DNA from: an uncultured Gammaproteobacteria bacterium
Lineage (GTDB): Bacteria; Pseudomonadota; Gammaproteobacteria; JAADGQ01
DNA: 17,618 nucleotides
NCBI GenBank assembly: GCA_964468225.1
Contig: CAYXVC010000041.1
Location: 1-17,618, forward strand
Direction of reading: 5' to 3'
Made by a program: the position numbers and the translations under genes. Below are positions 8,971 through 17,618 of the stretch, piece by piece (the stretch's first letter is position 1; each line of letters starts with the position of its first letter). Under the pieces are notes generated by a model, which saw only the letters and a program-made list of their open reading frames with translations, ran no database searches and was not told where the DNA came from.

Positions 8971-10209
8971 TTATCCCTTTACACAAACCACCTGACGCAG
9001 CGTATGCACAATTTCAACCAGATCTTTTTGCGCCGCCATCACCGCATCAATTGATTTATACGCGGCGGGTGTTTCATCAATCACACCTGCATCTTTACGG
9101 CATTCCACCCCCGCCGTGGCCTCCAGATGCTCATCCAGACTGACAATTTTCTTTGCCTGAGTGCGGGACATCACCCTTCCCGCACCATGGCTGCAACTAT
9201 GGAAACTTTCATCGTTACCCAAGCCACGAACAATAAAAGAACGGGCTCCCATGCTGCCGGGAATAATGCCTAACTCACCCACTCGGGCACGCACCGCACC
9301 TTTACGTGTCACCAGAACGTTTTCACCGTAGTGGTTTTCACGAGAAACATAGTTGTGGTGGCAGTTCACGGCCTGTGCTTGTGCCTCAAATGCAATCGAT
9401 ATTTCATTGCGCATTGCAGCAATCACTCGCGCCATCATCACTTCGCGGTTAATTCGTGCATACTCCTGCGCCCACTCCACCGCTTCTACATACTGCGTAA
9501 AGTGATCGCTCCCCTCGGGTAGATAGGCCAGATCTTTATCTGGCAAGTTCACAAACCAACGCTCCATATCTCTCTTGGCTACGTCTATAAAGTGTGTGCC
9601 AATGCGATTACCAACACCGCGTGAGCCGCTATGCAACATAAACCAGACGTCATCACTCTCATCCAGACACACCTCAATAAAATGGTTACCTGTTCCCAGC
9701 GTTCCCAGATGATTGACGTTATTGGTTTTTTTCAACAGATTATGCTGTTCGCACAAACGATCAAACCCCGGCTTCAAGGCCTTCCACGCCTGTGCAACAT
9801 CCTCGGGCAAATCACCCCAGGCGCCTTTATCACGCTTAGGCATACGACGACCACGCGAGGAAGATCGCCCATGTGGCACTGCCGTTTCAATTGCAGCACG
9901 AACACCACTCAGATTGTCTGGCAGTTGATCTGCCTTTAGCGACGTTTTCACAGCCATCATTCCGCAACCAATATCAACGCCTACTGCGGCTGGAATCACC
10001 GCTCCAATGGTGGACACCACACTGCCAATGGTCGCACCTTTACCCAGATGTACATCCGGCATGACTGCCACCCATTTATGAATAAAAGGCAGGCTCGCAA
10101 TATTTCTCAGCTGCTGACGTGCTTGCTCCTCAAATGGAACACCCAGAGTCCAGGATTTAATAGGAACCCCTGCATGGTCATCCATCACTTCATAAGATTT
10201 TTCGCACAT
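8971..10209 (-). CDS. rtcB: RNA-splicing ligase RtcB (3'-phosphate/2',3'-cyclic phosphate with 5'-OH RNA ligase)
   Basis: 412 aa, collinear with E. coli RtcB. Matches include PDVHLGKGATIGSV, AAVGVDIGCGM, HLGTLGTGNHFIE, MLHSGSRGVGN, NCHHNYV, GIIPGSMGARSFIVRGLGN and the C-terminus VMAAQKDLVEIVHTLRQVVCVKG. SD AAGGAGA lies 8 nt upstream of the ATG. Confidence 0.95.
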   Translation of the reverse strand: MCEKSYEVMDDHAGVPIKSWTLGVPFEEQARQQLRNIASLPFIHKWVAVMPDVHLGKGATIGSVVSTIGAVIPAAVGVDIGCGMMAVKTSLKADQLPDNLSGVRAAIETAVPHGRSSSRGRRMPKRDKGAWGDLPEDVAQAWKALKPGFDRLCEQHNLLKKTNNVNHLGTLGTGNHFIEVCLDESDDVWFMLHSGSRGVGNRIGTHFIDVAKRDMERWFVNLPDKDLAYLPEGSDHFTQYVEAVEWAQEYARINREVMMARVIAAMRNEISIAFEAQAQAVNCHHNYVSRENHYGENVLVTRKGAVRARVGELGIIPGSMGARSFIVRGLGNDESFHSCSHGAGRVMSRTQAKKIVSLDEHLEATAGVECRKDAGVIDETPAAYKSIDAVMAAQKDLVEIVHTLRQVVCVKG

Positions 10210-10250
10210 GGCTTTGTCTCCTTCTTTCTGTTGTTTGTTACAAACAGCTA

Positions 10251-10267
10251 TTGCAGATAGCGTGCCA
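10251..10267 (-). promoter_or_regulatory. Sigma-54 (RpoN) -24/-12 promoter of rtcB
   Basis: Minus strand reads TGGCACGCTATCTGCAA. The spacing is GG-N10-GC, matching the TGGCACG-N4-TTGCW consensus with one mismatch in the -12 box. It lies about 45 nt upstream of the rtcB ATG and is divergent from the sigma-54 activator gene rtcR. Confidence 0.8.
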
Positions 10268-10412
10268 GTTTTTTAAAAAAACATGAAAATAATCACAAGA
10301 TATTGTTTTTAATTGATTATTTTTTAGATCAACAAATATCTGGATTCATAAGTAAAATCCCATCATAATTAAAAACATATCTATTTCGATATTTTTGTAT
10401 TTATTTTGATAT

Positions 10413-12002
10413 ATGAAAACAGTAGCAATCAGTTTGTTAGGGACGGTTCTGGATCAAAGAGGAGGAAAGAGGCGCCGGAAGAAGTGGCGGCCCACGATCT
10501 CCTTATGCCAACAGGAAGATTTATTGATTGACCGCATGGAGCTGGTTTTTCAGCCACACTTCCAGCGCCTTGCTGATCAAGTCACCAAAGATATCCAGAG
10601 CATATCACCCAACACTGAAGTCAGACATCATCATATTGAGCTGACAGACCCATGGGATTTTGAAGAGGTTTATGGCTGCCTGCATGACTTCGCTCGCCAA
10701 TACAGCTTTGATCGAGATAAAGAAAAATACTTGATTCACATCACCACAGGCACACATGTCGCACAAATCTGTCTCTACCTTCTAACCGAAGCACACTATC
10801 TGCCAGGCCGTTTAATACAAACTTCACCTGCTCAAGACCACAGCGAATCGGGCACACACCATATCATCGATCTGGACTTGTCAAAGTATGACCAAATTGC
10901 ATCTCGTTTTTCGCGGGAACATAGTGAAGGCACTGTTTATTTAAAGGGCGGTATCGAAACCAAAAACATAGCATTCAATAACATCATCACCCAATTGGAA
11001 AAAATTTCCATCAACTCTGATGATCCCATTTTACTCACAGGCCCTACTGGAGTTGGCAAATCACTACTGGCTAAACGCATCTATCAGCTCAAACAAAACC
11101 GCGGACAAGTTCAGGGCCGATTAGTTGAAGTTAACTGCGCAACCTTGCGCGGCGATAGCGCCATGTCCGCCCTGTTTGGCCATAAAAAAGGGGCGTTCAC
11201 AGGGGCTTCCACACAACGCGCCGGCCTACTGCTGGAAGCACATGATGGCATTCTGTTTTTAGATGAAATTGGCGAGCTGGGTCTGGATGAGCAAGCGATG
11301 CTATTACGTGCAATTGAAGATAAAGACTTTATGCCGTTTGGATCAGACACTCCCGTTAACAGCAACTTTCAACTGATTTCTGGCACTAATCGAGACCTGC
11401 TTTCCGACAGCCGTAAAGGTAAATTCCGTGAAGATCTGTTAGCCCGAATCAATCTCTGGAGCTATCGCCTACCCTCGCTCAAAGAGCGTATCGAAGATTT
11501 AGAAAGCAATCTGGATTACGAGCTTGATCGCTTTACCCAGAAAGCAGGCACTCTTGTCAGTTTCAACAAAGCTGCACGTACACGTTATATGAAATTTGCA
11601 CACAGCGCTGATGCCACTTGGCGCGCCAATTTTCGTGACCTCAATGCCAGCGTCACTCGCATGTCAACCCTTGCAGACGGTGGCCGCATTACAGAAGAAG
11701 TAGTCAATGATGAAATTAATCGTCTAAAGCACGATTGGTCTGTTACCTCACAAAAGTGGAACCCCAAAGCCGTGACCGCAAAATTTCTGGACGCAGAAAT
11801 GCATGCGAAGCTGGATCTATTCGAACACATTCAGCTATCAGGTGTCATTAAAGTATGTGAAAATGCAAAATCGATGGCGGAAGCAGGACGAATGTTGTTT
11901 GATCAAAGTCGGGAACAGAAAAAATCAGTGAATGACAGCCATCGACTGAAACAGTTATTAGGGAAATATGACCTGAATTTTAATCAGCTCATGAGCAAAT
12001 AA
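10413..12002 (+). CDS. rtcR: Sigma-54-dependent transcriptional activator RtcR (CARF-like sensor, AAA+, HTH)
   Basis: 529 aa, collinear with E. coli RtcR. N-terminus MKTVAISLLGTVLD...KWRPTISLCQQEDLLIDRMEL. Walker A GPTGVGKSLLAKRIY. Sigma-54 contact motif GAFTGA. Further matches VNCATLRGDSAMSALFGH, LFLDEIGELGLDEQAMLLRAIEDK, REDLLARINLW. C-terminal HTH region. Confidence 0.95.
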   Translation: MKTVAISLLGTVLDQRGGKRRRKKWRPTISLCQQEDLLIDRMELVFQPHFQRLADQVTKDIQSISPNTEVRHHHIELTDPWDFEEVYGCLHDFARQYSFDRDKEKYLIHITTGTHVAQICLYLLTEAHYLPGRLIQTSPAQDHSESGTHHIIDLDLSKYDQIASRFSREHSEGTVYLKGGIETKNIAFNNIITQLEKISINSDDPILLTGPTGVGKSLLAKRIYQLKQNRGQVQGRLVEVNCATLRGDSAMSALFGHKKGAFTGASTQRAGLLLEAHDGILFLDEIGELGLDEQAMLLRAIEDKDFMPFGSDTPVNSNFQLISGTNRDLLSDSRKGKFREDLLARINLWSYRLPSLKERIEDLESNLDYELDRFTQKAGTLVSFNKAARTRYMKFAHSADATWRANFRDLNASVTRMSTLADGGRITEEVVNDEINRLKHDWSVTSQKWNPKAVTAKFLDAEMHAKLDLFEHIQLSGVIKVCENAKSMAEAGRMLFDQSREQKKSVNDSHRLKQLLGKYDLNFNQLMSK

Positions 12003-12548: not shown

Positions 12549-13495
12549 ATACACTATTAAAAAAAACAGACAGCTCTCATAATATCGATAATAAAAGAGA
12601 AAGTAGTGTGACTATTTCTCTTAAGTCACTGATTAAACTACACCATCAATCCCGACAATTATCGTTTGGCACTCGCCGCAAGGTTAGCAGTGCACTATCA
12701 GGAAGTTATGCCTCTTCATTTAAAGGACGAGGTATGGATTTTGATGAAACACGCATTTATCAGCCGGGAGATGATATTCGCAGTATGGACTGGCGCGTTA
12801 CCGCTCGCACTGGCCAGCCCCATACCAAAATATTTAAAGAAGAACGTGAGCGCCCTGTTTTTTTTGTTACCGACCTCAGCGCCTCCATGCACTTTGCAAC
12901 ACGCGGTGCATTCAAATCAGTGATTGCAGCGCAGGCTACGGCCTTATTAGCGTGGGCAGCGGCAGATCATGGTGATCGCGTAGGCGGGATTATTTTTTCG
13001 GATGAACAGCATGTTGAGCTGCCTCCAAAAGCCCGACAACATGGCGTGTTGCGCCTTTTGAAAACATTAGAGAGACTAGATTCAAATTTAGACAATGATT
13101 CGTCTGCACAGGGATTAGTTCAAGCGCTCAACCGATTAAGAAAAATCACTCATCCTGGTAGCCTTATTTTTATTTTAAGTGACTTTTACCACCTGGATGA
13201 AGAGGCAAAGCGCCATTTCAGTTATCTATCCAGACACAATGATATTGTCGGTATTTTAATTCGTGACCCACTGGAAATTGCACCACCACCACCTGATCGT
13301 TATAGCATCAGCAACGGTCAAAACATATCTGTACTCAATATTCACAATAAAAAACTCCGGAATCAGTACCACGCTTACTTTCAGGAAAAGCATGAGCGTA
13401 TTAATAGTGTTTTTCGCAAACACGGCGCACGCCTAATTGAACTTTCAACCCATCAGGATGTTTTTAGTACGTTGCGTCACCAGCTTAAAACCTAG
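12542..13495 (+). CDS. DUF58 domain protein (vWA-like fold; the family is usually associated with MoxR AAA+ ATPases)
   Basis: 317 aa. Family hallmarks present: GMDFDETRIYQPGDDIRSMDWRVTART, the aspartate box FFVTDLSASM, GDRVGGIIFSD, and LIFILSDF near the C-terminal third. Start overlaps the upstream phosphoesterase stop by 7 nt. Confidence 0.75.
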   Translation: MLNTLLKKTDSSHNIDNKRESSVTISLKSLIKLHHQSRQLSFGTRRKVSSALSGSYASSFKGRGMDFDETRIYQPGDDIRSMDWRVTARTGQPHTKIFKEERERPVFFVTDLSASMHFATRGAFKSVIAAQATALLAWAAADHGDRVGGIIFSDEQHVELPPKARQHGVLRLLKTLERLDSNLDNDSSAQGLVQALNRLRKITHPGSLIFILSDFYHLDEEAKRHFSYLSRHNDIVGILIRDPLEIAPPPPDRYSISNGQNISVLNIHNKKLRNQYHAYFQEKHERINSVFRKHGARLIELSTHQDVFSTLRHQLKT

Positions 13496-13525
13496 TAACC
13501 TATCACATTAAAAAATAGCCATTAT

Positions 13526-13534
13526 TGATATAAT
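13526..13534 (+). promoter_or_regulatory. Candidate extended -10 promoter (TGATATAAT) for the tlpA-DUF4266-DUF3570-apbE operon
   Basis: TGnTATAAT match, 36 nt upstream of the ATG at 13570, in a 74-nt AT-rich gap. No good -35 element. Confidence 0.35.
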
Positions 13535-13569
13535 GAATAATCAAATTAAAGCAAACAAGGGATATATAA

Positions 13570-14064
13570 ATGTTTAAAAGAACAGTGACCACCCTCATAA
13601 TTTCCAGCCTTCTACTCCTGTTTTTTTACTCATCGACTGTATCTGCAGCCAACAAAGCGCTTCGCTTTCAGATGCCAGGAGCAGCAGGCACCGTAGATTT
13701 GGCCAAATTTCATGGTAAGGTGGTCTATCTCGATTTCTGGGCTTCATGGTGTATACCGTGCCGCAAATCATTCCCCTGGATGAACACACTTCAAGATCAC
13801 TATCAAGACAAAGGGCTGGAAGTCATTGCTATTGCCCTTGATGAGTCTCCTAAAGATGCAATCGCATTTCTGAAAAAATACTCAGCGAACTTTACCATCG
13901 GATTTGATCGGGAAGGAAAATCAGCCGAAGCTTATGGAGTGAAGATAATGCCCACCTCTTATCTTATCGACAGACAAGGTTACATAATAAAAACCTATCA
14001 AGGCTCCATTGAAGGTCATAAAAAAGAGATTGAATCCATGATTAAAAAACTGGTGGCCAAATAA
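13570..14064 (+). CDS. TlpA/ResA-like periplasmic thiol:disulfide oxidoreductase (thioredoxin fold)
   Basis: 164 aa. Signal peptide. Redox motif WASWCIPCRKSFP (CxxC). Typical redoxin-family length. Confidence 0.85.
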   Translation: MFKRTVTTLIISSLLLLFFYSSTVSAANKALRFQMPGAAGTVDLAKFHGKVVYLDFWASWCIPCRKSFPWMNTLQDHYQDKGLEVIAIALDESPKDAIAFLKKYSANFTIGFDREGKSAEAYGVKIMPTSYLIDRQGYIIKTYQGSIEGHKKEIESMIKKLVAK

Positions 14065-14294
14065 TGAATATATTCCAATGCACTCTTGCTGGTACATTAC
14101 TGCTAATGCTGCAAGCCTGTACAGCATTTCAGGTGGAACCTGTGAAACCATGGCAAAAAGGGGCGCTTTCTGAAGAAGCTATGCTTCTGGATGACGACCC
14201 CATGGAAAGCTATGTTGATGACCATATTTACTTCAGCAAAGAGGCTTCTACCGGCGGAAAAGGTATCGGTGGTGGCGGATGTGGATGTAATTAA
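14064..14294 (+). CDS. DUF4266 family small lipoprotein
   Basis: 76 aa. Lipobox LLLMLQAC-TA. Family-typical HIYFSKEASTGG core. C-terminus GIGGGGCGCN. Start overlaps the tlpA-like stop (TAATG). Confidence 0.75.
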   Translation: MNIFQCTLAGTLLLMLQACTAFQVEPVKPWQKGALSEEAMLLDDDPMESYVDDHIYFSKEASTGGKGIGGGGCGCN

Positions 14295-14315
14295 CAAGGA
14301 CGCTTAAAGATAATT

Positions 14316-15581
14316 ATGAAATCAATTCGCAATAAACTGGCCATTGCTGCTTGCACAGTGCTATCTCAAGGGGCGCAGCAGGCAGCCGCTACTGAAACAG
14401 ACATCTCTCATCTGTTTTATAGCGAAGCTGATGATCGAGTGCTCGTCAATAAAACCATCGCCAAATTCAAAGCTCCACTGGGAGGTAATAACGTAATATC
14501 AATGGAAGCTGTTTATGATGCAATAACGGGAGCCACTCCCACCGGAGCTGTCGAAGCTGATAAATTTGTCGAACCAACTGATGAGACAGCACCTGCTGCT
14601 GATATAGTGACAGTCACGACCCCTTCCGGGGGAAGTATTATAAATATAGGCACAAACAATCCTGACGCCCCGGTTATTCCCCAAAGCACCCCTACTCTAA
14701 TTGAATTTGACGACACTCGTATAGGTGTTGACCTTGGATTGACACACAGCTATAGCAGGACTTTAAAAATAAACTACGGTATTAGCACCTCACTTGAAAG
14801 TGATTATGAAGCCTATGGTGGTAGTGTGACTATTGATAAGGAAACATTTAACCGCAACCTGACTTTCAGCGCAGGCATTGCCGGCTCCTATGACACCATT
14901 TTTCAATCTTCTGGAACAACGCCAGGCCCAAGGAGTAATCTGAAAAAATCACAGTTTTTTGGTAAAGGAAAAAAGCGTGGTTTTGAGGGAATGCTTGGTG
15001 TATCAGGAGTCACCAATCGCCGAACCGTCACACAATTCAACTATTCTATCAAATCACAAGAAGGATATCTGACAGATCCCTACAAATTGATAAGTATGAT
15101 TAATGCCGATGGTGCAGAGACGGATGTCTATTATGAAAGTCGACCGGAAAGTCGTTTACAACAAACTCTGTACAGCGCTTTGGTGCATAAATTAAACAAC
15201 AAGGATGTCATTCATTTATCCTACCGCTATTACTTTGATGATTGGGATATTAACTCGCATACCATTGACTATCGACACCGCAAAAATTTCGCCAATGGCC
15301 AACATCTGGAACCTCATCTGCGTGTCTATAATCAAACTGCTGCTAATTTTTACCAAAACAACCTGAATGATGATGGTCAACCACTGCCAGAATATGTCAG
15401 TGCTGACTACCGGCTGGATGAGTTAAGCAGTGTCACCATCGGAGCAAAATATGGCATACCGGCTTGGGGAGGCACCCTGAGATTCCGTCTGGAATATCTC
15501 TATCAATCATTTTCTGAAGCAGAATTTGATACCAACAAGGCTGTTATTTTCCAGGCAAGTTACAAAAAAAAGTTTAATTAG
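14316..15581 (+). CDS. DUF3570 family secreted protein with an ApbE-type flavinylation motif
   Basis: 421 aa. Sec signal peptide (cleavage near AQQA-AAT). DAITGAT at residues 68-74 matches the Dxx[ST]GA[ST] FMN-attachment motif of RnfG and NqrC. Encoded immediately upstream of apbE. Confidence 0.7.
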   Translation: MKSIRNKLAIAACTVLSQGAQQAAATETDISHLFYSEADDRVLVNKTIAKFKAPLGGNNVISMEAVYDAITGATPTGAVEADKFVEPTDETAPAADIVTVTTPSGGSIINIGTNNPDAPVIPQSTPTLIEFDDTRIGVDLGLTHSYSRTLKINYGISTSLESDYEAYGGSVTIDKETFNRNLTFSAGIAGSYDTIFQSSGTTPGPRSNLKKSQFFGKGKKRGFEGMLGVSGVTNRRTVTQFNYSIKSQEGYLTDPYKLISMINADGAETDVYYESRPESRLQQTLYSALVHKLNNKDVIHLSYRYYFDDWDINSHTIDYRHRKNFANGQHLEPHLRVYNQTAANFYQNNLNDDGQPLPEYVSADYRLDELSSVTIGAKYGIPAWGGTLRFRLEYLYQSFSEAEFDTNKAVIFQASYKKKFN

Positions 15582-15589
15582 AGGTCACT

Positions 15590-16474
15590 TTGCCCCCCCG
15601 ATTGACTAGAGAAAAAGGTTACTGGCGCGGTTTTTTTCGCGCCATGGCCAGCCCCTGCGAAATTCTGTTCGCCACACAAAATCGCTCTCTGGCCAAAGAG
15701 CTTCTACAACAAAGCTATGCCGAAGCAAAACGAATTGAGAAAAAATTCAGCCGTTACCGAACGGACAACTGTATTTACCAAATTAACAAAAGCAATGGCA
15801 CTCCCGTTTCAGTGGACGATGAGACTACTCATCTACTGAACTTTGCACAACAATGTTATCAAATCAGCGAGCATAAATTTGATATTACTTCCGGTGTATT
15901 ACGTGAGGTGTGGACGTTTGACGGCAGTGACAATATTCCTGACCCAGCCGTAGTCAAATCAATATTGCCACGTATCGGTTGGAATAAGGTCGAATGGCAC
16001 AACTCAATCATCACTCTACCTTCCGGTATGGAAATTGATCTGGGAGGAATCGGCAAGGAATACGCAGTCGATCAGACCGCCAGACTGATCTTCAGAAAAT
16101 TAAAAACAGGTGTGCTAATCAACTATGGTGGTGATCTGCATGCTCTGGGCCCACAAAAAAGTGGGAAACCATGGGGTGTGGGGGTTGATGACCCTGAAAA
16201 AAGTGGCATCAAACAGATTGGTGCAGTCAACCTGTCAAAAGGCGGATTAGCCACCAGTGGTGATGCACGACGCTATTTGCTTAAAAGCGGTATCCGTTAC
16301 GGTCATATTCTTGACCCAGCCACCGGCTGGCCTGTTCCAGACACCCCCCGAGCCGTGACCGTCATTGCAGATACCTGCCTGGAAGCAGGAATGCTCTCGA
16401 CCATGGCTATGTTGCGGGGAAGCCAAGCTCGCCATTTTCTTGAAGCTCAGCAGGTTGATTTTTGGTGCGTCTGA
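15590..16474 (+). CDS. apbE: FAD:protein FMN transferase (ApbE family)
   Basis: 294 aa. Conserved ApbE motifs: GIGKEYAVD, GHILDPATGWP, DLGGIGK. Probable TTG start at 15590 with GAGG 5 nt upstream. No signal peptide is visible. Confidence 0.85.
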   Translation: MPPRLTREKGYWRGFFRAMASPCEILFATQNRSLAKELLQQSYAEAKRIEKKFSRYRTDNCIYQINKSNGTPVSVDDETTHLLNFAQQCYQISEHKFDITSGVLREVWTFDGSDNIPDPAVVKSILPRIGWNKVEWHNSIITLPSGMEIDLGGIGKEYAVDQTARLIFRKLKTGVLINYGGDLHALGPQKSGKPWGVGVDDPEKSGIKQIGAVNLSKGGLATSGDARRYLLKSGIRYGHILDPATGWPVPDTPRAVTVIADTCLEAGMLSTMAMLRGSQARHFLEAQQVDFWCV

Positions 16475-16475
16475 C

Positions 16476-17618
16476 TCAGGAGAACATTGGACCCTCTCCC
16501 GCAACTGTCTCATCAATTTTATTCTCTCCCTCAGGAGAATATTCATCATCCCTAGTCAATACTTCAGGGTTCTGCACACCAAAATATGAGTACATCGTTG
16601 CGGCGATTGCAGTTGGTTCAAACTGATAACTATCCTCAGTGGGTTGAGTAAACTGACGGTTTTGTTTGGAATCGCCAAAACGCTCTGTTTTTCCAACAAT
16701 TTTCCCTAACGTGCCGGGACGAATTTCCTCACCACCAAAGGTATAGAAATTTTGATTGTTACCATGATCCCAACCCATGGAGTTGTTCAAGTTAACATTA
16801 CGACCAAAATCACCGAATACATTGATAATGATATTTCCAGTTCCACTTCCATCCGCCCGTTTGGAATATTTGATGTGCTTGGTAGCCGCCCGCAGCGTTG
16901 TCATCAAAGACTCCATTCGTTCGGTATACTTATCAATAGCAGAGTCATGATCATCCCACCCCCCTAAGCCACCACCTACAGTAATAAACATACTGTCAGG
17001 ATTCGCTATCGCCAATGTAACCGCTGCTTTTATTCGATCTCTATGGCGCGTGTCAGGGTATTGTAGAATTCCATCTTCCCCTGCATCAACATCACCAGCA
17101 GGAAGAGATGGAAGTGATGAATTAAGTGCTTCAGAAAAGCCTTCAATACGTCCCTCCATATCTCTGCGAGCTTCGAAGCCATCAAATGCTTTGGAATATC
17201 GCCCATCAGCTCCTGTATTCATTTGAGAGACCAGATTTTCCAACACTGCATCAAACCCGTTATATTCACGAGAATAGGGATTATTAAATTTTTGATCCAG
17301 GCTGACCGCACGCATCGTTAGAGGTAATAGATTGTTTTTATCTAAAAAAGCGGTCGAGACACCCTCGAATGACACAAATGGCAGCACATAATCATCTATC
17401 GATTTATTCAACAAAGTTTGATTGTTGTACAAAACTGTTGCCAGTGTTGTACCCATACCAGGGCTATTATTGATATTCAGATTTCCAGTGAGGCAAGAAA
17501 AAATACTGGGACGGTGAGAACGAGTGTTGTTTTTAAGGCGATTCACCGTTCGATAGATTGACATATCCCCTGATGCCAACATATCCTCCATCGCCTCACC
17601 GCCCGCATCACTCCAAAA
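16476..17618 (-). CDS. DUF1501 domain protein (sulfatase-like fold), N-terminus beyond the right edge of the window
   Basis: GGGLGGWDDHD and FGDFGRNVNLNNSMGWDHGNN...FGGEEIRPGTLGKIVG match DUF1501 signatures. The reading frame stays open upstream of the first Met (FWSDAGGEA-MEDML...) to position 17618, so the true start, probably a Tat signal, is outside the window. The stop is 1 nt from the convergent apbE stop. Confidence 0.75.
   Translation of the reverse strand, partial: FWSDAGGEAMEDMLASGDMSIYRTVNRLKNNTRSHRPSIFSCLTGNLNINNSPGMGTTLATVLYNNQTLLNKSIDDYVLPFVSFEGVSTAFLDKNNLLPLTMRAVSLDQKFNNPYSREYNGFDAVLENLVSQMNTGADGRYSKAFDGFEARRDMEGRIEGFSEALNSSLPSLPAGDVDAGEDGILQYPDTRHRDRIKAAVTLAIANPDSMFITVGGGLGGWDDHDSAIDKYTERMESLMTTLRAATKHIKYSKRADGSGTGNIIINVFGDFGRNVNLNNSMGWDHGNNQNFYTFGGEEIRPGTLGKIVGKTERFGDSKQNRQFTQPTEDSYQFEPTAIAATMYSYFGVQNPEVLTRDDEYSPEGENKIDETVAGEGPMFS

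Follow-up and report, generated by a model that had tools for sequence, protein, structure and literature searches.

The stretch of DNA analysed here (17,618 nucleotides, hereafter the window; contig CAYXVC010000041.1 from an uncultured Gammaproteobacteria bacterium) carries four adjacent genes that encode a thioredoxin-like (Trx-like) protein, the small lipoprotein DUF4266, the protein DUF3570 and an ApbE-family flavin transferase. We think it probable, taking the explanation as a whole, that these genes form a complete, DsbD-less version of a cluster described by Méheust, Huang, Rivera-Lugo, Banfield and Light (eLife 2021; PMC8238504), in which ApbE would load flavin mononucleotide (FMN) onto Thr74 of DUF3570 before export, DUF3570 would fold into an outer-membrane beta-barrel, and the flavin would take part in a thiol relay. 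The identification of DUF3570 as an ApbE substrate re-derives the published result and adds one metagenomic member to the system. Neither the barrel fold of DUF3570 nor the missing signal peptide of the linked ApbE was found stated in the two papers of the group that described the system (PMC8238504 and a 2024 AlphaFold survey).

The flavinylation motif and its conservation

14316..15581, + strand: DUF3570, 421 aa, predicted 16-stranded outer-membrane beta-barrel and ApbE substrate
14517..14537, + strand: flavinylation site 1, D68-A-I-T-G-A-T74, with Thr74, in the lumen-facing register where beta-strand 3 ends, as predicted acceptor of the FMN phosphoester (from the sequence, its conservation, the model strand 59-75, residue alternation and the motif definition)

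The codons GAT GCA ATA ACG GGA GCC ACT at 14517-14537 (+) read D-A-I-T-G-A-T in frame with the open reading frame (ORF) 14316..15581, in which the codon at 14535-14537 encodes Thr74 of a protein of 421 residues. The ORF matches the Pfam family DUF3570 (PF12094) with 287.7 bits, where 25 is the cut-off, its residues 7-401 covering profile positions 3-400 of 427, and the protein has 884 homologues at E <= 1e-5. Identical copies occur on three short public contigs, and the nearest named relatives are metagenome-assembled genomes (MAGs) of Chromatiales and Gammaproteobacteria. An earlier note on this DNA had pointed to DAITGAT with Thr74 in DUF3570 and to apbE right behind it, which the reading frame, the Pfam matches and the 8-nt gap between the two genes confirm. 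The note had also called the motif RnfG/NqrC-type. The note gives the RnfG motif as DAISGAT, and over the seven residues the likeness holds, but the Pfam scan of ORF 14316..15581 gave DUF3570 only and no FMN_bind domain (PF04205). The general motif that the note had relied on is borne out by a 2025 JBC review, which gives it as D-x-x-[S/T]-G-A-[S/T] with FMN on the last residue and adds that these seven residues suffice (PMC12052999).

When the window is translated in all six frames, the pattern D..[ST]GA[ST] matches once, and the full ApbE motif arises in 0.43% of residue shuffles of the window's DUF3570 (P = 0.004). Together these two results reject a chance occurrence of the motif.

Conservation was followed in two sets. 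An exhaustive HMMER search returned 1,699 family members at E <= 1e-3, which clustered at 50% identity into 141 full-length representatives (the broad set); the close set holds 119 full-length homologues with 38-70% identity. Among the broad representatives D68, G72 and G77 are each present in 141/141, position 74 is Ser or Thr in 140 and position 71 in 139. The [ST]GA[ST] core is canonical in 116 of these sequences, and a relaxed form of it is found in 136. In the close set D68 is kept in 118/119 sequences and G72, P75 and G77 in all 119, while position 74 is Thr in 117 and Ser in 2, and position 73 is occupied by Ala (82), Ser (34) or Pro (3). The earlier note had proposed an alignment of the DUF3570 family as a check on the motif, and the motif passes it, both at the acceptor and at the three invariant residues. 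In a sizeable minority of DUF3570s the core Ala is replaced by Ser, Gly, Pro or Val (e.g., D-T-M-S-G-S-T; P0017, P0080 and P0086 in our alignment), which lies off the published consensus.

The gene cluster and the published system

13570..14064, + strand: TlpA/ResA-like periplasmic thiol-disulfide oxidoreductase, 164 aa, with C61-I-P-C64, first of the four genes (Pfam Redoxin 5.3e-24, AhpC-TSA and Thioredoxin_8; NCBIfam ResA/TlpA-like)
14064..14294, + strand: DUF4266 small lipoprotein, 76 aa, with lipobox L-Q-A-C19 and glycine-rich C-terminus C73-G-C75-N (PF14086 2.6e-20, profile 1-50 of 50)
15590..16474, + strand: ApbE-family FAD (flavin adenine dinucleotide):protein FMN transferase, 294 aa, TTG start after AGAGG, no signal peptide or lipobox (Pfam PF02424)

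All four genes are co-directional (13570-16474), and between the Trx-like stop and the DUF4266 start there is an overlap of 1 nt. The Trx-like protein begins with a hydrophobic signal sequence (Kyte-Doolittle (KD) maximum 2.93), and DUF4266 ends in ...GGGGCGCN. NCBIfam holds no model for DUF3570 or DUF4266, and in a scan of 13300-16800 promoter and terminator sites were no more frequent than in shuffled sequence, a result with no bearing on where the operon begins or ends.

DUF3570 was established as an ApbE substrate by Méheust et al. The Chlorobium luteolum protein (ABB24424.1) was UV-fluorescent on SDS-PAGE only when its cognate ApbE was co-expressed, and the signal was lost only when both of its Ser sites were mutated (PMC8238504). 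The published cluster consists of ApbE, DUF3570, a thioredoxin-like protein and DUF4266 with its CXC motif; DsbD accompanies it in 227 clusters and not in 316 (PMC8238504). No DsbD (PF02683) was found among the ORFs of at least 138 aa in the 17.6 kb window, which places the window in the DsbD-less class. The window is an ordinary new member of the described system in its DsbD-less form. The earlier note had taken the function of this flavoprotein to be undescribed, which, apart from the physiological role, does not hold: flavinylation, motifs and cluster were all published in 2021. The authors propose a hybrid thioredoxin/flavin relay of unknown function that is possibly linked to iron (PMC8238504). 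The experiments suggested in the note (co-expression with ApbE, UV-illuminated SDS-PAGE and site mutants) had already been used in that study, and in the literature on DUF3570, DUF4266 and flavinylation in connection with the outer membrane or beta-barrels we found no functional study after the 2021 paper.

The genomic context of DUF3570 was surveyed by tblastn with the four window proteins in 80 loci from different GTDB species. DUF4266 lies immediately upstream of DUF3570 in 75 of the 76 loci with enough flanking sequence, and a Trx-like gene within 1 kb upstream in 54/69. The apbE gene, whose co-occurrence with DUF3570 the earlier note had proposed to test, follows DUF3570 directly and on the same strand in 32 of 69 loci and lies elsewhere in the locus in 6 more (38/69 in all). 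Finding apbE in 55% of stretches of about 16 genes is far above the expectation from one to few copies per genome, an expectation that was estimated rather than computed. With 75/76 for DUF4266 against 38/69 for apbE, it is the CXC lipoprotein and not apbE that accompanies the barrel as an obligate partner. In the census of immediate neighbours DsbD_TM was found downstream in 1/63 loci, and VIT1 was not among the top families. Conservation of the motif, gene linkage and the experiment on the homologue (PMC8238504) together support the note's central proposal that DUF3570 is an ApbE substrate modified on the last Thr of the motif; in the window's protein the motif is very probably the place where flavin becomes covalently attached.

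Non-canonical forms of site 1 are somewhat commoner in loci without apbE (SGST, SGSS or TGST in 10/31) than in loci with adjacent apbE (SGST, SGSS or TGSS in 7/32). We considered whether variants such as SGST track the absence of apbE and rejected the idea, as 10/31 versus 7/32 is no clean separation.

The fate of the second site

14616..14636, + strand: second-site remnant, T101-T-P-S-G-G-S107, in place of the [ST]-G-A-S-G-G that many relatives carry; non-canonical as an ApbE motif (from the alignment)

The ApbE-associated DUF3570s were described as having two conserved [S/T]GA[S/T] motifs (PMC8238504). A second motif, [ST]GAS-GG, about 16-20 residues past site 1, is found in 79 of the 119 close homologues and in 13 of the 141 broad representatives. 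The canonical second site occurs in none of the sequences P0001-P0014, which make up the window's own clade (counted without P0015, a fragment of 265 aa); P0002-P0014 read TTPSGGS or TTPSSGG at this place. Given this absence, one flavin only is predicted for the window's DUF3570. The second [ST]GAS site is present in 18/31 loci without apbE and in 3/32 loci with apbE directly downstream, a contrast that is probably a clade effect.

P0198 (L086:3766-5235, 489 aa), a divergent family member, has the non-canonical site 1 SGPS, and a later loop carries NTVTGASG three times in tandem and then an acidic insertion. Its neighbours are RimK and CorA genes, with no DUF4266, Trx or ApbE beside it. P0198 may be a multi-flavinylated variant of the barrel.

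An alternative explanation for the conservation of site 1 is that the motif is kept for structural reasons, e.g., because it forms a tight turn where strand 3 ends, that it is unmodified in the window's clade, and that the linkage to apbE is inherited synteny. The residues G72, P75 and G77 are invariant, and Gly and Pro are typical turn formers; the second published site has decayed in the window's clade; and 25/141 representatives deviate at the alanine or acceptor positions. However, a Ser or Thr acceptor in 140/141 sequences combined with an invariant Asp is exactly the pattern that ApbE recognises, a homologue was flavinylated by experiment (PMC8238504), and the local ApbE has kept its active-site motifs. 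A purely structural role is thus very improbable.

DUF3570 is predicted to be an outer-membrane barrel

14316..14390, + strand: predicted Sec signal peptide, residues 1-25, with cleavage inferred after A-A-A25 (from the sequence, a low-confidence helix at 4-16 and a KD maximum of 2.61)
14541..14696, + strand: long disordered loop 2, residues 76-127 (52 residues), on the long-loop side of the barrel (pLDDT < 50 at residues 91-123)

The N-terminus of DUF3570, MKSIRNKLAIAACTVLSQGAQQAAA followed by TE, resembles a Sec signal peptide, and the barrel of the AlphaFold2 model starts at residue 26. With this cleavage site Thr74 would lie about 49 residues into the mature protein, close to the distance of about 45 residues given in the earlier note. 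The signal-peptide region is unusually conserved (A11 and L16 invariant, I4, L8 and C13 at 90% or more in the 39-sequence alignment) and weakly hydrophobic, with a median 10-residue KD maximum of 1.99 versus about 2.7-2.9 in the neighbouring exported proteins. Such a conserved, weakly hydrophobic signal may be relevant to slow, post-translational export.

The AlphaFold2 model, built on the alignment of 39 sequences, has a mean predicted local distance difference test score (pLDDT) of 85.1, with 290 residues at or above 90, and a predicted template modelling score (pTM) of 0.80. It consists of 16 long beta-strands behind a low-confidence N-terminal helix (residues 4-16) and forms a closed, all-beta barrel whose structural neighbours are integral outer-membrane barrels only. 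Sequence features agree with the model. Family-averaged hydrophobicity alternates in 16/16 strands; the terminal residue is Phe, Trp or Tyr in 106/141 relatives, and F420 is invariant in the alignment; the window's protein ends in K-F-N, so that Phe is penultimate. DUF3570 thus combines a signal peptide, amphipathic strands and a C-terminal aromatic beta-signal. Moreover, the C. luteolum DUF3570 without its signal peptide went to the insoluble pellet in Escherichia coli (PMC8238504), which is the behaviour expected when an outer-membrane protein is synthesised in the cytoplasm. Model and sequence features together predict with high confidence that DUF3570 is an integral beta-barrel of the outer membrane. 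PMC8238504 contains neither the word "barrel" nor the word "porin", and the 2024 survey, whose structural figure omits DUF3570, makes a single allusion to "the outer membrane".

In this model the motif forms the last part of strand 3 (residues 59-75). One side of the barrel bears all of its long loops, with 52, 22, 28 and 29 residues, and the opposite side all of its turns of 2-5 residues. Termini and short turns of outer-membrane proteins (OMPs) are as a rule periplasmic, which, with the long loops on the side of the motif, would place the site at the extracellular rim. The insertions in loop 2 are clade-specific and in the alignment unique to the window's protein. Residues at the odd positions of strand 3 (61, 63, 65 and 67) are hydrophobic or aromatic and would face the lipid, whereas the even positions are polar (62, Ser/Thr/Asn; 64, Lys/Arg; 68, the invariant Asp); G72 and S/T74 share this even register, in which S62, E64 and D68 are the lumen-facing residues of the window's protein, and Thr74 lies just beyond the aromatic girdle residue Y67. 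As G72 and S/T74 are in the lumen-facing register, the flavin is predicted to point into the lumen of the barrel; according to the model it should sit just above the aromatic girdle, near the long-loop rim.

The earlier note had spoken of a secreted flavoprotein. The flavoprotein part is supported, but the location was imprecise, as model, fold neighbours and sequence features point to an integral outer-membrane barrel. One could nevertheless assume that DUF3570 is a soluble secreted or periplasmic protein like the FMN_bind domains of RnfG and NqrC, flavinylated in the periplasm by an exported ApbE. The signal peptide and the canonical motif fit this explanation, most characterised ApbEs are periplasmic lipoproteins (PMC12052999), and PMC8238504 calls the system "extracytosolic" and names no membrane. 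However, the Pfam scan gave no FMN_bind domain, the 16-strand model is confident and its structural neighbours are all integral outer-membrane barrels, the strands are amphipathic and the C-terminus carries the aromatic signal, and the linked ApbE, here and in at least 41 relatives, has no room for a signal peptide (see below). We consider a soluble DUF3570 improbable.

The linked ApbE has no signal peptide

ORF 15590..16474 matches PF02424 with 232.8 bits, the domain beginning at residue 21, and starts after a gap of 8 nt behind the DUF3570 stop. In a phmmer comparison with solved ApbEs it aligns with 1vrm (2.8e-36), including the segments DLGGIGKEYAVD, TSGDARRY and HILDPATGWP, and also with 7esa, 3pnd and 4xdr; the blocks DLGGI-K-YA-D, TSGD--RY and HI-DP-TG-P are kept. 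Judged from these blocks, the window's ApbE is intact.

A stop codon lies in frame 4 codons 5' of the apbE TTG, and in the N-terminus LPPRLTREKGYWRGFFRAMASPCE there is no hydrophobic stretch (KD maximum 1.27). ApbEs without a signal also occur in more than 40 (about 41) DUF3570-linked loci, including that of an Elusimicrobiota MAG and that of a distant relative (L084:3087-3983). In most of the linked apbE loci a stop lies 3-26 codons 5' of the conserved start GYWxGRFxAMASPCE, and the median N-terminal 10-residue KD maximum of the linked ApbEs is 1.46, versus 2.89 and 2.66 for the signals of the Trx-like and DUF4266 proteins in the same loci. The Cys in the "SPCE" of this N-terminus is conserved among the linked ApbEs. 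An ApbE that is extended at its N-terminus or fused to DUF3570 by a frameshift was considered and rejected: the frames differ, the stop lies 4 codons upstream, and the intergenic distances vary between loci. A run of seven C is found at 15593-15599, right after the TTG start, and between the window and contig L001 apbE is 98% identical, versus 100% for the neighbouring genes; the run and this difference could be assembly noise or a slippage-prone tract.

The folded barrel has the motif in a strand, ApbE attaches FMN most readily where its substrate is flexible, at termini or in loops (PMC12052999), and the linked enzyme, which lacks a signal, appears to be cytoplasmic. These three observations suggest that FMN is attached before export, which we regard as the most likely order of events. 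An alternative explanation is that the barrel is flavinylated in the periplasm, either by the signal-less ApbE reaching it through an unrecognised route, or by a second, exported ApbE before insertion by the beta-barrel assembly machinery (BAM), with the local ApbE serving a cytoplasmic target. In the 31/69 loci without a nearby apbE, an ApbE encoded elsewhere must suffice, and many genomes encode several ApbEs (PMC8238504); periplasmic localisation is essential for the Salmonella ApbE, and Klebsiella pneumoniae has a cytoplasmic ApbE with a cytoplasmic target (PMC12052999). However, the signal-less apbE is tightly spaced and adjacent to DUF3570 in 32 loci, the cognate ApbE of C. luteolum flavinylates its DUF3570 in the cytoplasm of E. 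coli (PMC8238504), and the single six-frame match leaves no other substrate motif in the window. Loading in the periplasm is thus possible but clearly the less likely course, and we continue with attachment before export.

A proposed mechanism and what it would mean

ApbE would use FAD and attach FMN to Thr74 through a phosphoester bond, a reaction that is inferred here and was shown for the Chlorobium homologue; Thr74 would be the single acceptor. Attachment would take place on the unfolded DUF3570 precursor, probably in the cytoplasm and before Sec export, and this is the weakest step of the scheme. The flavinylated chain would then be exported, and BAM would fold it into the 16-strand barrel, whose lumen would hold the flavin towards the loop side. 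The TlpA-like CXXC protein would reduce (or oxidise) the CXC tail of DUF4266, and the tail would exchange electrons with the flavin, so that the result would be a thiol-to-flavin redox module at the outer membrane. The chemistry between CXC and flavin would resemble the dithiol-flavin couple of the flavoprotein disulfide reductases. The electrons would enter presumably from a DsbD-type protein encoded elsewhere. For the terminal substrate of the relay iron reduction has been suggested in the literature.

Several points weigh against this scheme. No DsbD or other inner-membrane electron input was found encoded in the window, and apbE is absent from 31 of the 69 loci, so that its linkage is not obligatory. 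We know of no precedent for flavinylation in the cytoplasm followed by Sec export of the FMN-bearing chain. The core of site 1 has a non-canonical residue in 25/141 representatives (e.g., SGST or TGSS). The lumen-facing, loop-side position of Thr74 would follow from the model, OMP topology rules and residue alternation and not from coordinates. The flavinylation experiment concerns the C. luteolum homologue only, whose acceptors are Ser and whose sites are two (PMC8238504), and the Salmonella ApbE needs its periplasmic localisation for function (PMC12052999).

If DUF3570 is a barrel with its flavin site in a strand, the modification would have to precede folding, and if the precursor is loaded in the cytoplasm, an FMN-bearing chain would pass through Sec and BAM. 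Barrel and signal-less ApbE, if both are true, raise the question in which compartment flavin is attached and whether a flavinylated chain can be handled by Sec and BAM, and they open a possible flavin-based electron route to or through the outer membrane. In the boldest form of the scheme, DUF3570 might be the first outer-membrane beta-barrel known with a covalent flavin in its lumen, loaded as unfolded precursor by a dedicated cytoplasmic subfamily of ApbE and acting with DUF4266 and the TlpA-like protein as a heme-free electron conduit from thiol to flavin across the outer membrane; we offer this only tentatively and with considerable doubt.

Other genes near the cluster

Directly downstream of the cluster, in convergent orientation, 28/63 loci have a gene for a divergent DUF1501-like protein (31-46 bits), which in 3 more loci is immediately upstream. 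In the window it occupies 16476-17618 (-) and is cut by the window end; in L004 it extends over 10121-11716. This neighbour is not mentioned in PMC8238504. A 2023 preprint by Haft reports that JDVT-CTERM proteins are sometimes neighbours of DUF4266, DUF3570 and TlpA genes, and a gene upstream of the Trx-like gene in one of our loci (L084:3-1112) fits this report, as it encodes a beta-helix-like surface protein with a hydrophobic C-terminal tail that resembles a sorting signal. Farther upstream in the window, the RtcB RNA ligase gene (8971-10209, -) is divergent from that of the sigma-54 activator RtcR (10413-12002, +), an ordinary RNA-repair module unrelated to the cluster; beyond rtcB lie genes for an SPFH/Band 7 protein, a Cys/Met pyridoxal phosphate (PLP) enzyme and an OEP and HlyD efflux pair.

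Comparison with known systems

The closest counterpart is the "DsbD system" of C. luteolum (PMC8238504), with which the window shares the Pfam families, a conserved [S/T]GA[S/T] motif within the first quarter of DUF3570, an adjacent apbE and the CXC of DUF4266. The acceptor is Thr in the window's DUF3570 and Ser in that of C. luteolum; the window's protein has one canonical site, the second reading TTPSGGS, whereas the published DUF3570s have two; and the Trx-like protein matches Redoxin, AhpC-TSA and Thioredoxin_8, whereas PMC8238504 lists PF13899.

With the FMN_bind proteins NqrC and RnfG (and with NqrB and RnfD) DUF3570 has in common the seven-residue motif, FMN on the terminal Thr or Ser and installation by ApbE. 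However, those substrates are small periplasmic domains or inner-membrane subunits, whereas DUF3570 is a predicted outer-membrane barrel and has no FMN_bind domain. At the level of the fold, and at that level only, DUF3570 is like the 16-stranded outer-membrane barrels PelB, PgaA and BcsC, which export exopolysaccharides, and like CdiB and FhaC; the identity to these proteins is 5-11%, DUF3570 has no tetratricopeptide repeat (TPR) or POTRA domains, and no genes for polysaccharide or two-partner secretion lie near it. The porin-cytochrome conduits MtrAB-C of Shewanella use heme as cofactor and have no sequence relationship to DUF3570; any likeness would be one of analogy.

Most characterised ApbEs are periplasmic lipoproteins, and the cytoplasmic ApbE of K. 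pneumoniae resembles that of the window in being without a signal peptide (PMC12052999). The substrate of the K. pneumoniae enzyme is a soluble fumarate reductase of the cytoplasm, whereas the only candidate substrate in the window carries a signal peptide and is predicted to reside in the outer membrane.

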